Below, piece by piece: positions 5,554-10,721 of a DNA stretch of 64,000 nt (position 1 is the first letter of the stretch; the number at the start of each line of letters is the position of its first letter). The notes under the pieces are model-generated. The model was not told where the DNA came from, searched no databases, and worked only from the letters and a program-made list of their open reading frames with translations. A program made the translations under genes and the position numbers. The stretch lies in NCBI RefSeq assembly GCF_988243305.1, contig NZ_OZ547136.1; one strand, 5' to 3'.

Positions 5554-6225
5554 TCAGCGCTGTTTTTTATAGTAGCGTTCATTTTTATCGATGCCTGTGA
5601 AGGTTGATTGGGTCAACTCCAGTACTATGCAACCCTCTCTGAAAAGGGATTTATTATCAGGTTGCAGAATGCAACTTCGCACCACCCCCGTAAACAAAGA
5701 AAAAAGCAGGAACGCCAGAGCCTCACTACGAATTTCCGAACATATTTCTCTATATAACTTACCTTTTTCGAAAATATAACATAGTAATTTCACAAAATTA
5801 TTGACATCCACCATTTTTTGTAAGAAATTTATTCTTATATCATCCGGACATTCTTCACAAAAAAACACAATATAAATTACATTCCGTAAGTGTACATTAT
5901 ATTGTAATTTAATCAGGCTACGTGATAAGCAACGATACATCGCTTTAACCGGTTCAGAAACTCTCCCATTTTTGATGGCTGTAAGCTCATCAAATAATGA
6001 TAGTGGTACCCGCTCGATGACTTGTCGCAGAAGATCTTTTTTTTCGTTGAAATACCAGTATATGGCCCCCCGAGTACAACCTGCGCGCACCGCAATCATC
6101 TCCAGTGTCGTCTTCGAAAAGCCCGTCTCACAAAAGCAGAACTCTGCCGCATCCAGGATTTGTTTGCGGGTTTCTTCCGCTGCAAATTTTGTGTGCCGCA
6201 CCACTGTTGAAATCTCCATTGACAT
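5554..6225 (-). CDS. TetR/AcrR-family transcriptional repressor
   Basis: 223 aa; N-terminal TetR HTH (TRKQILDAAEFCFCETGFSKTTLEMIAVRAGCTRGAIYWYFNEK). Confidence 0.7.
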   Translation of the reverse strand: MSMEISTVVRHTKFAAEETRKQILDAAEFCFCETGFSKTTLEMIAVRAGCTRGAIYWYFNEKKDLLRQVIERVPLSLFDELTAIKNGRVSEPVKAMYRCLSRSLIKLQYNVHLRNVIYIVFFCEECPDDIRINFLQKMVDVNNFVKLLCYIFEKGKLYREICSEIRSEALAFLLFSLFTGVVRSCILQPDNKSLFREGCIVLELTQSTFTGIDKNERYYKKQR

Positions 6226-6324: not shown

Positions 6325-7389
6325 TTATGATTGCTCAGCTTCAGTCTTATCCGATGATTTCTTATTTCTGCGGCTGAAGAACCCGGCAATTAACATATAG
6401 AAGAGAGGAATATAAAAGATTGCCAGTATCGTAGCAGTGATCATCCCTCCAACCACACCAGTACCGATGGCATGTTTACTTCCGGAACTTGCTCCAGTCG
6501 AGACAGCCAGTGGGATAACCCCCATTACAAATGCCAGCGAAGTCATAATTATCGGTCTTAACCTCACTCTCGCCGCTTCAACAGCAGCCTCTTTAATGCT
6601 TAGTCCTTCTTTCTCATGCAATTCACGAGCAAACTCCACGATAAGTATGGCATTTTTCGCAGACAGCCCTATTGTTGTTAATAAACCGACCTGGAAAAAG
6701 ACATCGTTACCAAGGCCGCGCAACAAAGTAGCACAGACAGCCCCCAGGACACCAAGCGGAACAACCAGCATGACCGAGAAAGGAATGCTCCAGCTTTCAT
6801 ACAGTGCAGCCAGACACAGAAAGACGATCAACAGTGAAAGTGCATATAGTGCAGGAGCCTGAGAACCTGAAAGTCGTTCCTCAAAAGACAAACCTGTCCA
6901 GGAAATATGGAAACCTTCGGGAAGTCTTGCCGCAATATCCTCAATTGCTTTCATTGCATCCCCGGAACTGTATCCTGGTGCCGGTTCCCCCAGGATTTCG
7001 ACAGCAGAGATACCATTATATTGCTCCAGTTTTGGTGAGCCATAAATCCATTTGCCTGTTGCAAAAGAGGCAAAGGAAACCATGTCGCCATCACTGTTAC
7101 GGACATACCATTTATCAAAATCCTGCGGTGATATACGTGAGCCGGGTTCGCCCTAAATATAGACTTTTTTCACCCGTCCACGATCGTTAAAATCATTTAC
7201 ATACATCGAACCCCAGGCTGCTGGCATTATGTTGTCGACGTCGCTCATGCTCAGTTTAAGCGCCTGAACTTTCTCGTCATCAATCAGAATCTGGAACTGA
7301 GGCTCATCGTTCATGCCGTTAGGACGAACCATGTTTAACGCTGGACTTTTCGCCGCTTCAGCAAGAAGCTGATTTCGGGCCTGGATCAT
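6325..7389 (-). pseudogene. RND efflux transporter (AcrB/AcrF-like), C-terminal remnant, frameshifted and 5'-truncated by IS2
   Basis: ORFs 6325-7083 and 7153-7389 match the C-terminal third of AcrB-type pumps (VRPNGM...[27 protein letters not shown]...[13 protein letters not shown]) in two frames; upstream part absent, IS2 end at 7482. Confidence 0.7.
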
Positions 7390-7481
7390 TTTTTCATGGC
7401 CAGCTCCGCTACGATCCTCGAGGAACAGGTCAAACCCTGTAGCATTCCCCAGTTCTGATACGGCAGGGGGCGTTTTAAAAC

Positions 7482-7838
7482 TAGACTAGCCCCCAGAATC
7501 TCCAGACAACCAATATCACTTAAATAAGTGATAGTCTTAATACTAGTTTTTAGACTAGTCATTGGAGAACAGATGATTGATGTCTTAGGACCGGAGAAAC
7601 GCAGACGGCGTACTACACAGGAAAAGATCGCTATTGTTCAGCAGAGCTTTGAGCCGGGAATGACGGTCTCCCTTGTTGCCCGGCAACACGGTGTGGCAGC
7701 CAGCCAGTTATTTCTCTGGCGCAAGCAATACCAGGAGGGAAGTCTTACTGCTGTGGCCGCAGGAGAACAGGTCGTTCCTGCCTCTGAACTTGCTGCTGCC
7801 ATGAAGCAGATTAAAGAACTCCAGCGCCTGCTGAACAA
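7482..7838 (+). mobile_element. IS2 left end, truncated about 360 bp into the element
   Basis: tagactagcccccagaatctccagacaaccaatatcacttaaataagtgatagtc matches the IS2 left inverted repeat region; orfA (InsC) sequence diverges from IS2 after ...KELQRLL. Confidence 0.75.
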
Positions 7839-7863
7839 AACGCCGGATGTCTCCCGGCTCTGA
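7573..7863 (+). pseudogene. IS2 orfA (InsC) truncated, with a foreign 9-codon tail
   Basis: [56 protein letters not shown]... is IS2 InsC-like; the C-terminal residues do not continue as IS2. Confidence 0.7.
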
Positions 7864-8030
7864 AATTAAGGCTTCGGTTATTTGCACGAAATGTTCCTTT
7901 TCAAACCCTGTTGAATTTTGTTAAGCCGGTGCAGACACACGGAAAACGCACATCAACACCGGACGGTACGATACAAACACCAGTGACTGGCGGGACGAAG
8001 GGAATGACGAATCAGTCAGGAAATGATGAC
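7836..8030. repeat. Copy B of the roughly 180-bp conserved non-coding element (inverted relative to copy A)
   Basis: See copy A; lies between the IS2 truncation point and the small ORF/alpA. Confidence 0.5.
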
Positions 8031-8141
8031 AAACAGTTGGCAGACCAGAGGAGTCAGCAGAAAGATGAGCGGGAGTGTCGCCAGCATCGGGGACAGGGCT
8101 GATTTCCGCAATACCAGCGCCGGCATTGCAACACGTTTCAT
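8016..8141 (-). CDS. Hypothetical 41-aa hydrophobic peptide, translationally coupled to the AlpA-family gene
   Basis: MKRVAMPALVLRKSALSPMLATLPLIFLLTPLVCQLFVIIS; its ATG overlaps the alpA stop in an ATGA arrangement. Not in the ORF track (below 60 aa). Confidence 0.3.
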   Translation of the reverse strand: MKRVAMPALVLRKSALSPMLATLPLIFLLTPLVCQLFVIIS

Positions 8142-8371
8142 GCTGCTGCTCCTCGTGATTCCTCAATTCGCTGCTGCATCCACTGCTCCACTTCACTTTT
8201 GTACCAGCGGCTGCTGCGCCCCAGTTTGATGGGTTTAGGGAAATGACCTTCACTGATCAGCTTGTAAAACCATTTATCGGTCATACCGGTGAAACTGGTG
8301 ATGTAGTTCATGTCGATCAGGGGATCGTCGGCACGCAGTAACACGCTGTCGTGGCTTGTTGTGGTCAACAT
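8138..8371 (-). CDS. AlpA-family phage/island transcriptional regulator (excisionase-like HTH)
   Basis: 77 aa; ...YITSFTGMTDKWFYKLISEGHFPKPIKLGRSSRWYKSEVEQW matches AlpA-family DNA-binding proteins. Confidence 0.7.
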   Translation of the reverse strand: MLTTTSHDSVLLRADDPLIDMNYITSFTGMTDKWFYKLISEGHFPKPIKLGRSSRWYKSEVEQWMQQRIEESRGAAA

Positions 8372-8439: not shown

Positions 8440-9015
8440 TCAGAACGGTCCTGCAGATCCGGGATAGCCGGGATTACCGGCGAGGCAACGGGCTTCCGGA
8501 TCGCACACACCACGACGATCGCGGGCGAAATCACTGAACGCCCATATCAACTCTTTGAGGATGTTTTCACAGTCCGGTGAACGACTGTCCAGCACCACAT
8601 CCCGGGTGATCTGCTTCTGATACTGCTTTGCTTCACCCGGTGACGCGAAGCCCAGTACGTTGCTCCAGGCATCCAGAATCAGCCGGTCCAGTTCAGGGCC
8701 GTCGAAATACTCCTGTCTGACACACAGCACCACGTGGTATTCCGGCTTTTCAGGATGACGGGTCAGGAGCCAGCAGAGATCTCGTCCAGGTGTTGCATTC
8801 ATCAGCGCACTGACGGTTTCGATAAAGTCCATACCGAACCAGATCTTTCTGCTGCTGAAGGTACGGTCATATTCACATGGCAGACGAAGCAGGATCCGTC
8901 GTATCCGGGAGCCGGACTGCTCACGCAGCGCACGCTCAAGGACACCGATGATTTTGTTCTGATAAGACGGCCAGAAGGGTGCCAGGCTATAGTCGAAATA
9001 AGGGATAGCATTCAT
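8440..9015 (-). CDS. YfjJ/YagK-like (inovirus Gp2 family) island protein
   Basis: 191 aa from MNAIPYF (start trimmed from the ORF track); family assignment from memory of CP4-57-type islands. Confidence 0.45.
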   Translation of the reverse strand: MNAIPYFDYSLAPFWPSYQNKIIGVLERALREQSGSRIRRILLRLPCEYDRTFSSRKIWFGMDFIETVSALMNATPGRDLCWLLTRHPEKPEYHVVLCVRQEYFDGPELDRLILDAWSNVLGFASPGEAKQYQKQITRDVVLDSRSPDCENILKELIWAFSDFARDRRGVCDPEARCLAGNPGYPGSAGPF

Positions 9016-9272
9016 AAGATATGCTCCGTTATGCGCAGCCCACAATGCGTCCTGCCCGTGAATGAGCTGACGTGTTATAGCTTGCGGATGGGGTTGATGG
9101 AATAAGTGAAGAACCGAAGCAGAACGGGAAGATCAGGTCACCGACAAGGGACAGAACACCGGATGTGGTTAAGAGTGAATGATCTCCGTTGACTTCAGTT
9201 CACATCATTAAGCAAGGTGGTAAGGTTTTACCGACGGAATGTTTCCAGGACAGGAAGCTCAGGATTTAAGCT

Positions 9273-9839
9273 TCAGAAGTGAGGGTTACGAGGACGCCCT
9301 GCAGCAGGACGTTCAGGAACTTCATTGCAGCCGTAGGCACACAGCCCGTCTTTTTGCTCTTCTTTTGCCAGATAATGCAGGGCACCGCGAATATTATCGA
9401 TGCTTTCAGGATCGTTGTGGCGCACAGGAATGTTGATGTTGTATGTATAATGCGGCTGATATGTACAGCGGTGTGCCGAACCGCTGTTATGTGTAATAGA
9501 CCGCCAGCATTCCGTAATCCGCTCCGCAAAGGGATATATTTTTTTAACCCTCTGACGATCGATCCACAAAACCGCATGCGCATGAAAACCATGATCAGCC
9601 GTCCATTCAATCACCCAGAAGAAACCAACGATATTTTCAAATTGTTCCACCTGCTCCAGCAGCATACGCAACTGCAATTCAAGCCAGCGATGATCAGGTT
9701 GTAAGAAATCGGGCGTATCTTTCCTGTAGAAGAAATCCATCCGTAAGGCCCGCAGGCAGGAATAGCGTGCCATCATTTGATTGATGTGATTGTCAAGTAA
9801 AGCGGTAAAAAACCAGTTTGGTGTGTAAGATTTAGGCAT
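9273..9839 (-). CDS. YfjJ/YagK-like (inovirus Gp2 family) island protein
   Basis: 188 aa; HxH motif (FHAHAVLWIDRQ) as in Gp2-like proteins; adjacent paralogue at 8440-9015. Confidence 0.45.
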   Translation of the reverse strand: MPKSYTPNWFFTALLDNHINQMMARYSCLRALRMDFFYRKDTPDFLQPDHRWLELQLRMLLEQVEQFENIVGFFWVIEWTADHGFHAHAVLWIDRQRVKKIYPFAERITECWRSITHNSGSAHRCTYQPHYTYNINIPVRHNDPESIDNIRGALHYLAKEEQKDGLCAYGCNEVPERPAAGRPRNPHF

Positions 9840-10671: not shown

Positions 10672-10721
10672 AAGGAGAAGGTGGAGAAGGTGGAGAAGGT
10701 GGAGAAGGTGGAGAAGGTGGA
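10672..10721. repeat. Tandem repeat, 9-bp unit GTGGAGAAG, about 5.5 copies
   Basis: Direct read: (g/a)aggagaag then gtggagaag x4 then gtgga; embedded in a purine-rich plus strand within a 1.3 kb AT-rich non-coding region. Confidence 0.9.

Follow-up and report, generated by a model that had tools for sequence, protein, structure and literature searches.

Results

An alpA gene and an overlapping small ORF in a decayed island module

The window analyzed here is a stretch of 64,000 nucleotides (contig NZ_OZ547136.1 of assembly GCF_988243305.1). The locus of interest in this window comprises the following features.

7573..7863, plus strand: fragment of an IS transposase accessory gene that truncates the module (PF01527 HTH_Tnp_1, E 1.3e-19; incomplete pseudogene in PGAP)
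7822..7887, minus strand: 5' remnant of a UCP030791 / YagK-YfjJ-like gene (GTG start at 7887, ~22 codons; the intact gene encodes 182 aa)
8001..8022, minus strand: conserved non-coding motif TTCCTGACTGATTCGTCATTCC with stops in two frames, within which ORF41 ends (allele alignment)
8016..8141, minus strand: ORF41, a chimeric frameshift ORF of 41 aa, MKRVAMPALVLRKSALSPMLATLPLIFLLTPLVCQLFVIIS (sequence and allele comparison)
8054..8125, minus strand: out-of-frame zinc-ribbon remnant CRRWYCGNQPCPRCWRHSRSSFC, ending at a stop (ORF list entry 8054..8134; comparison with the undeleted allele)
8127..8128, no strand: deletion junction (allele alignments; the exact site is ambiguous by a few bases owing to a repeat)
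8138..8371, minus strand: gene for an AlpA-family winged-helix regulator or excisionase-like protein of 77 aa (Pfam, PGAP, AF2)
8149..8154, minus strand: Shine-Dalgarno (SD) sequence GAGGAG within the 3' end of alpA, 7 nt 5' of the small-ORF ATG
8440..9045, minus strand: gene for a hypothetical protein upstream of alpA (191 aa in PGAP; longest ORF 201 aa; position conserved in E. coli)
9273..9839, minus strand: YagK/YfjJ gene (inovirus Gp2-like, Rep_ORF2-G2P-like), the first of the module (sub-threshold Pfam matches to PF23343 and PF11726; PGAP)

The 77-aa protein matches the Pfam family Phage_AlpA (PF05930) over residues 22-65 with 40.8 bits and an E-value of 2e-10, and thereby passes the gathering threshold of 21 bits. 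PGAP names it helix-turn-helix transcriptional regulator WP_000958492.1, and its AF2 model shows a beta-alpha-alpha-beta-alpha fold with a pLDDT of ~85. On the minus strand, the ATG of the small ORF (8141-8139) overlaps the TGA of alpA (8140-8138). The plus-strand tetranucleotide tcat at 8138-8141 thus reads ATGA, a start/stop overlap of 4 nt, which confirms the 41-aa hydrophobic ORF that a first-pass annotation of the window had described at this position. The predicted product is indeed strongly hydrophobic (GRAVY +1.43), and the ORF is already present in the PGAP annotation of the identical E. coli M217 locus as hypothetical protein WP_001342704.1. The length of ORF41 alone is not beyond chance expectation: the window has 636 ATGA sites, 30% of which are followed by at least 41 open codons, and its six frames contain 400 ORFs of at least 41 aa. 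A 68-aa ORF on the plus strand (8023-8229), which is antisense to ORF41 and the 3' end of alpA, has no Pfam match at E-values up to 0.1 and is presumably fortuitous.

The minus-strand module is ordered YagK/YfjJ (inovirus Gp2-like), a hypothetical protein of ~190 aa, the AlpA-like protein, ~270 nt, and the UCP030791 / YagK-YfjJ-like protein of 182 aa. The locus is found in 2,732 of 5,426 complete E. coli genomes, with 1-8 copies in each, nearly all of which are chromosomal. The whole window is devoid of tRNA genes, and the ~12.6 kb surrounding the module contain no annotated integrase. Since, in addition, the last gene is cut by the IS fragment, the module in the window is a decayed island remnant, and the surrounding module genes are often pseudogenes at other loci too. 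The patchwork nature of this decayed, acquired DNA is also apparent directly to the left of the IS fragment, where an RND efflux permease pseudogene, truncated and interrupted by an internal stop (~6325-7470; L001 4466-5611), adjoins an intact TetR/AcrR regulator gene (5554-6225; L001 3695-4366). On the other side, the ~1.3 kb that separate the YagK/YfjJ gene from a sugar kinase gene are unannotated and AT-rich (34-35% GC), and they contain a perfect 9-bp tandem repeat (GGAGAAGGT, 5.3 copies, 10674-10721).

The flanks of TTCCTGACTGATTCGTCATTCC vary across 15 E. coli alleles, whereas the motif itself hardly changes (single substitutions in 4 of the 15). A hairpin CCGGTG…CACCGG (7926-7962) precedes the ribosome-binding site of the next gene. 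The motif or the hairpin could be a binding site, or a regulatory element that serves the UCP030791-like gene. Folding of the sequence between the zinc-ribbon stop codon and the start of the next gene gave no structured-RNA signal (z = −0.42), and Rfam had no match between 7400 and 8800 at E-values up to 1. Between 7700 and 9900 the promoter scan returned no promoter-like site, and the three terminator-like hairpins found there did not exceed the shuffled expectation.

A 26-nt deletion behind ORF41

Alignment of E. coli alleles revealed that the window copy lacks, right behind the fourth codon of the small ORF, a block of 26 columns, (ATGCCGG)TACGCTGGCAATGTGCAAA. In the undeleted allele, which reads GTGTTGTG-ATGCCGG-TACGCTGGCAATGTGCAAA-ATGCCGG-CGCTGG, this segment is flanked by 7-bp direct repeats. 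The loss therefore comprises one copy of the 7-bp repeat and the intervening 19 nt. In its extended form, ATGCCGG(TA)CGCTGG / ATGCCGGCGCTGG, the repeat matches at 13 of 15 bases. The gap is found in the window and at loci L004 and L052-L056, and the segment is present at L002, L003, L005-L009 and L057. The reverse polarity, in which the 26 nt are a derived insertion, was rejected on the grounds that the full first knuckle is found in all other genera.

With the 26 nt kept, the same ATG opens a 37-codon ORF, MKRVVMPVRWQCAKCRRWYCGNQPCPWCWRHYRSSSC, which encodes a basic peptide with two CxxC knuckles. The deletion takes out Pro7 to Lys14, including the first Cys, and with them part of the first zinc knuckle. 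Codons 1-4 of ORF41 (MKRV) are the native N-terminus of this zinc-ribbon peptide, codon 5 spans the junction, and the rest is the −1 frame of the zinc-ribbon remnant and its 3' flank. The remnant itself (8125..8054) is cut off from its start codon; the first Cys of knuckle 1 is gone and knuckle 2 reads PRC, not PWC. This W-to-R change in the second knuckle is accompanied by an extra 1-nt deletion in the window type, both of which are to be expected once a gene has been inactivated. The hydrophobicity of ORF41 arises because Cys, Arg and Trp codons are read one base off frame: the −1 shift converts TGC, CGN and TGG into CTG, GCN and GTN, and hence Cys/Arg/Trp into Leu/Ala/Val, as exemplified by A-TGC-CGG-CGC-TGG-TAT-TG, which becomes ATG-CCG-GCG-CTG-GTA-TTG and encodes MPALVL.

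The zinc-ribbon ORF is conserved next to alpA in other enterobacteria

We fetched 44 loci with AlpA relatives from contigs that represent one genome per species. At the loci with the closest AlpA proteins (65-97% identity), which belong to Citrobacter, Superficieibacter, Siccibacter, Yokenella, Tenebrionibacter, Hafnia, Kosakonia, Rosenbergiella and Serratia, a Cys-rich ORF lies directly 3' of alpA. This ORF has 37-61 codons and encodes a basic peptide with two CxxC knuckles and the pattern W-x-C-x2-C-x-R-x-[YF]-x-G-x3-C-x2-C. Representative peptides are listed below.

MKKWNNVKSGSIPPRWICERCRRQYCGEKPCPFCWRVISRM: zinc-ribbon peptide of Citrobacter sp. and an unclassified Enterobacteriaceae isolate
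MEKRRRTQPWKIPPRWTCPRCRRQYCGARPCPVCFRPSGASAQP and close variants: zinc-ribbon peptide of Superficieibacter, Siccibacter, Yokenella, Tenebrionibacter and Hafnia
MKSTGQHRFRKTVNCISLCWQCEHDKRRYCDGKPCPVCIRKS: zinc-ribbon peptide of Serratia, with the first CxxC displaced by three residues but retained

The four knuckle cysteines are conserved, while the peptides of different genera are only ~27-49% identical. The junction with alpA is ATGA in E. coli, and TGATG, TAATG or a 17-nt gap in other lineages; a GAGGAG-like SD sequence or purine run is located 7-12 nt 5' of the small-ORF start in all lineages examined. A start that overlaps or abuts the alpA stop, with its SD sequence inside alpA, is the layout predicted for a coupled gene pair. 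The coupled arrangement proposed in the first-pass annotation is therefore retained with respect to the start, the SD sequence and the linkage to alpA, all of which are conserved, but not with respect to the hydrophobic 41-aa frame. Lack of a conserved reading frame in related islands had been named there as grounds for refutation, and this is what was observed: undeleted E. coli alleles and the islands of other genera encode the Cys-rich peptide in another frame. Next to the more distant AlpA homologues (L023-L046) the small ORF was absent.

Gene finders almost never call the zinc-ribbon ORF: it is represented by 10 proteins among 5.8 billion, and among 1.84 billion cluster representatives a profile search recovered only 22 relatives. 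No PGAP annotation is present at this ORF in L002, L003, L005, L006, CFT073 or EDL933. The 22 relatives include stand-alone forms of 46-61 aa and one in-frame AlpA-ZnR fusion, the 96-aa protein P0040 (L059:30-320, JGI metagenome contig Ga0487874_00184). Although this is a single instance, such a natural fusion hints, in the Rosetta-stone sense, at a functional link between the two proteins. Three relatives were traced to their contigs, and all three lie in the order YagK/YfjJ - AlpA - ZnR - DUF7828/Zn_ribbon_11. Tandem pairs of proteins that each combine DUF7828 with Zn_ribbon_11, an uncharacterised paralogous family, accompany the AlpA module at L012:2507-3345, L011:2477-3123 and L007:3937-4726; in other genera they follow the module, and in one E. 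coli island they precede it.

Two further observations concern individual records. In E. coli O157:H7 EDL933 (NZ_CP008957.1 ~1,111,700; L062 ~2430-2470) a short tandem duplication of ~18 nt (GAAGTGGAGCAGTGGA…) shortens the alpA homologue to 65 aa, and the zinc-ribbon ORF downstream of it is intact and unannotated; the same allele is present at L009. Secondly, L009 and L021, which are labelled as a Collinsella MAG and Chryseobacterium sp., carry alpA modules of the Enterobacteriaceae type, and these labels are likely to reflect mis-binning or contamination of public records.

The zinc-ribbon frame is the frame under selection

The three reading frames were compared over a 24-codon core in 21 unique nucleotide sequences, which had been retrieved with an open core motif.

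Zinc-ribbon frame: entropy at codon positions 1/2/3 of 0.54/0.57/1.18; pN/pS 0.36 (bootstrap 95% CI 0.22-0.52)
ORF41 frame (zinc −1): entropy 1.18/0.54/0.57; pN/pS 1.05 (bootstrap 95% CI 0.80-1.51)
Zinc +1 frame: entropy 0.57/1.18/0.60; pN/pS 1.27 (bootstrap 95% CI 0.84-2.06)

The zinc-ribbon frame is thus most variable at position 3 and the ORF41 frame at position 1. No stop codons were found in the zinc-ribbon core of the 21 sequences, a set that was retrieved with an open core motif. Together, the codon-position entropy, the pN/pS values and the lack of stops identify the zinc-ribbon frame as the coding frame, which is under purifying selection, and show that the ORF41 frame is not a coding frame. 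Dual coding was also considered, as an alternative frame is open over 61-97 codons in several genera; this was rejected in view of pN/pS values of ~1.05-1.27 in both alternative frames.

The relatives of ORF41 itself fit this picture. Among 5.8 billion proteins ORF41 retrieved 24 clusters, all confined to E. coli, which have the N-terminus MKRV(A/V)MPALVLRKSALS… in common. Their lengths range from 39 to 71 aa and their C-termini diverge (…PLVCQLFVIIS, …PSGQPADYRPFLT…, …SPVSQQIVALS), and some are alternative-frame calls on undeleted alleles (MCKMPALVL…). Between L054 and the window, M-to-I, L-to-P and V-to-A changes fall inside the 'hydrophobic' segment. None of these sequence comparisons suggests a maintained peptide. 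ORF41 has no Pfam, NCBIfam, PHROG or PADLOC family. Neither the ORF41 nor the zinc-ribbon peptide string turned up in 8 million full texts, or in the text and available supplements of two studies of enterobacterial smORFs, the Sakai RIBOseq and the 'cryptic microproteome' paper.

The deletion is common and recurrent in E. coli

Complete E. coli genomes contain the deletion junction at 961 places (918 genomes) and the undeleted first knuckle at 2,571 places (2,015 genomes), so that the deleted form accounts for ~27% of the copies. In 60 evenly spaced records, the full ORF without net indel was found in 43 and the deletion type in 13. The identical deletion is present on three haplotype backgrounds and is thus recurrent. 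L056, which carries the deletion, does not differ from the undeleted L006 in either flank (0/229 and 0/171); the deleted loci L004 and L052 are nearest to L005 and L002 (4/229 and 2-3/174 differences); and the window type is nearest to L003 downstream (8/184), at 51-61/185 from the other two haplotypes. Repeat-mediated slippage explains this recurrence, and gene conversion between paralogous islands may contribute to the spread of the deletion. Unrelated frameshifts of the microgene were observed in P0006 and P0008-P0010, and at L010, L016, L017 and L019. As the zinc-ribbon ORF is often disrupted, selection on it is evidently not strong everywhere.

The ancestral peptide resembles the Zn_ribbon_11 domain

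The best Pfam match of the microgene product is Zn_ribbon_11 (PF11682), with 20.5 bits for the Citrobacter-type peptide, which is below the gathering threshold of 24. The Superficieibacter-type peptide scored 10.1 bits, the E. coli and Serratia types had no match to PF11682, and P0047 has a weak precomputed match. No Pfam family above threshold, and no NCBIfam, PHROG or PADLOC family, could be assigned to the zinc-ribbon peptide. The microprotein alignment is nevertheless in register with the C-terminal zinc ribbon of two adjacent Zn_ribbon_11 proteins (W.C..C...Y.G...C..C), and hhalign gave E-values of 1.3e-4 (probability 53%) and 3.4e-3 for the two comparisons. AF2 predicts a beta-hairpin with strands at residues 9-11 and 18-20 and a helix at 26-34 (pLDDT 72, core 78-85), with the cysteines at the places expected for a zinc-ribbon or treble-clef fold and the second CxxC at the N-terminus of the helix. 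A Foldseek search of this model against the PDB gave nothing significant; the best hit had an E-value of 2.3 and only small zinc proteins were returned. A tblastn search of 50,697 phage records with the small-ORF peptide yielded no match. We read the ancestral peptide as a stand-alone, divergent Zn_ribbon_11-like microprotein.

Zn_ribbon_11, described as a 'probable zinc-ribbon', forms the C-terminal domain in DUF7828 proteins whose genes lie in the same islands, and the spacing W-x-C-x2-C-x3-Y-x-G-x3-C-x2-C is common to this domain and the microgene peptide. The two kinds of protein are also encoded in the same neighbourhood, directly adjacent in L011, L012, L059 and L061, and have the same taxonomic range, namely the Enterobacterales. 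Unlike the Zn_ribbon_11 proteins, however, the microgene peptide is a stand-alone product of 37-61 aa without DUF7828 domain and with a sub-threshold Pfam score; it is always coupled to alpA, is more basic, and has a conserved R-x-Y. The microgene may have been derived from the zinc ribbon of the proteins that combine DUF7828 and Zn_ribbon_11. In the literature on DUF3279, PF11682, DUF7828 and YagK/YfjJ we found nothing functional.

Discussion

In our view, ORF41 is very probably not a gene of its own, but a pseudogene by-product: the out-of-frame product of a 26-nt deletion in a conserved zinc-ribbon microgene. In enterobacterial genomic islands, the zinc-ribbon ORF is located directly 3' of a subfamily of alpA-like genes, with the stop and start usually overlapping or abutting. 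In the window copy, the loss of 26 nt between the ATGCCGG repeats after codon 4 leads the ribosome into the −1 frame and gives rise to a Leu/Ala/Val-rich, apparently 'membrane-like' product that ends at the next chance stop. As its SD sequence and start codon have stayed intact and coupled to alpA, translation of alpA may well entail that of ORF41, as an unselected by-product. The function of the zinc-ribbon peptide would be lost in the window, which is consistent with the decayed state of the module.

Alternatively, the deletion might have been selected because the host profits, or the island is immobilised, when the zinc ribbon is lost and perhaps the hydrophobic peptide gained; in that case ORF41 would be the sign of an adaptive switch and not of neutral decay. 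The occurrence of an identical event on three haplotypes (L056/L006; L004 and L052 near L005 and L002; the window near L003), and the ~27% of copies that carry it, would fit such a scenario. However, the direct repeats (7 bp; 13/15 when extended) provide a purely mutational cause for the recurrence, the deletion could spread by gene conversion between the paralogous copies, of which each genome has 1-8, other and different frameshifts are found in the microgene as well, and the neighbouring module genes are often pseudogenes. We therefore regard selection for the deletion as unlikely. A more far-reaching version is, to our mind, decidedly improbable: it would make the zinc-ribbon peptide an obligatory co-translated partner of AlpA in a two-protein regulator or excision factor of YagK/YfjJ-type islands, and the 26-bp deletion a recurrent, selected 'domestication' that locks the islands, with a translated hydrophobic neo-peptide in place of the zinc ribbon.

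The first-pass annotation had raised the possibility that the small ORF encodes a membrane toxin or regulator. Hok, Ldr, Ibs and TisB are type I toxins or membrane microproteins of E. coli, which are small and hydrophobic, and ORF41 resembles type I toxins in these two properties. A functional small membrane peptide that is translationally coupled to alpA would also agree with the intact SD sequence and ATG, the GRAVY of 1.43, the annotation by PGAP and the occurrence in ~900 E. coli genomes. Yet the hydrophobicity is what frame-shifted Cys/Arg/Trp codons are expected to produce, and, unlike type I toxins, ORF41 has neither a conserved frame nor a match to a Pfam, NCBIfam, PHROG or PADLOC family, nor an antisense or other RNA family in Rfam, and originates from a deletion in another gene. 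Its frame is not conserved beyond the E. coli deletion alleles, has a pN/pS of 1.05 with codon position 1 as the most variable, and encodes products of 39-71 aa with variable C-termini and L-to-P changes. We found no evidence for a toxin or regulator and consider this function very unlikely. Least probable of all is that neither ORF is a gene: alpA and the next gene would then be separated by a non-coding 3' UTR or by a regulatory element acting as RNA or DNA, and the Cys-rich ORF would be a coincidence. In favour of this reading, gene finders almost never call the ORF (10 of 5.8 billion proteins; 22 of 1.84 billion representatives), and it is closely followed by a conserved non-coding motif and a hairpin. 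Against it, the substitutions show a three-base periodicity with a pN/pS of 0.36 in one frame only, the ORF remains open with four cysteines across genera at ~27-49% peptide identity, its SD sequence and start are correctly placed, the peptide shows in-register homology to a protein domain, Rfam is empty and the RNA fold z-score is −0.42.

The real feature at this locus is thus the conserved zinc-ribbon microgene, which is mostly missed by annotation, and its product is a new stand-alone member of a known, uncharacterised kind of protein. AlpA / Xis-type regulators and recombination directionality factors are encoded by P4-like elements, PICIs and genomic islands (PMC2704930, PMC8844411, PMC11773190). 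Like these systems, the alpA of the window is a bona fide member of Phage_AlpA in an island setting with Rep-like YagK/YfjJ genes. We found no description of a coupled zinc-ribbon partner of AlpA proteins in the literature, and to our knowledge no such partner is known. Ogr and Delta of P2 and P4 are small zinc-finger transcription activators of mobile elements that also encode AlpA-like proteins. The microgene peptide, however, has no sequence match to Ogr/Delta even at E-values up to 10, is about half their length and differs in its Cys spacing. Because of the constant coupling to AlpA, the one fusion, the basic/aromatic composition and the Rep-like neighbours, we tentatively suggest that the peptide might be a zinc-dependent accessory of the AlpA-like DNA-binding protein that acts in the regulation or excision of the island, although we hold this to be somewhat less than an even chance. 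AF2 modelling of an AlpA-(G4S)4-ZnR chain with 14 paired sequences (pTM 0.40, pLDDT not raised) neither supported nor excluded a complex.

The case of ORF41 calls for caution, since an ATGA start, a good SD sequence, a hydrophobic product and even a RefSeq accession can all stem from a frameshifted pseudogene. RefSeq annotates the by-product, yet mostly misses the 37-codon gene in the ~2,000 undeleted E. coli genomes, which include CFT073 and EDL933. The 26-bp deletion, in itself, illustrates cleanly how microhomology-mediated gene inactivation recurs in nature. With the ancestral gene, a conserved zinc-ribbon microprotein joins the unannotated small proteins of the regulatory modules of pathogenicity islands, and the invariable linkage of this gene to AlpA, together with one natural fusion, provides a testable lead on island regulation.
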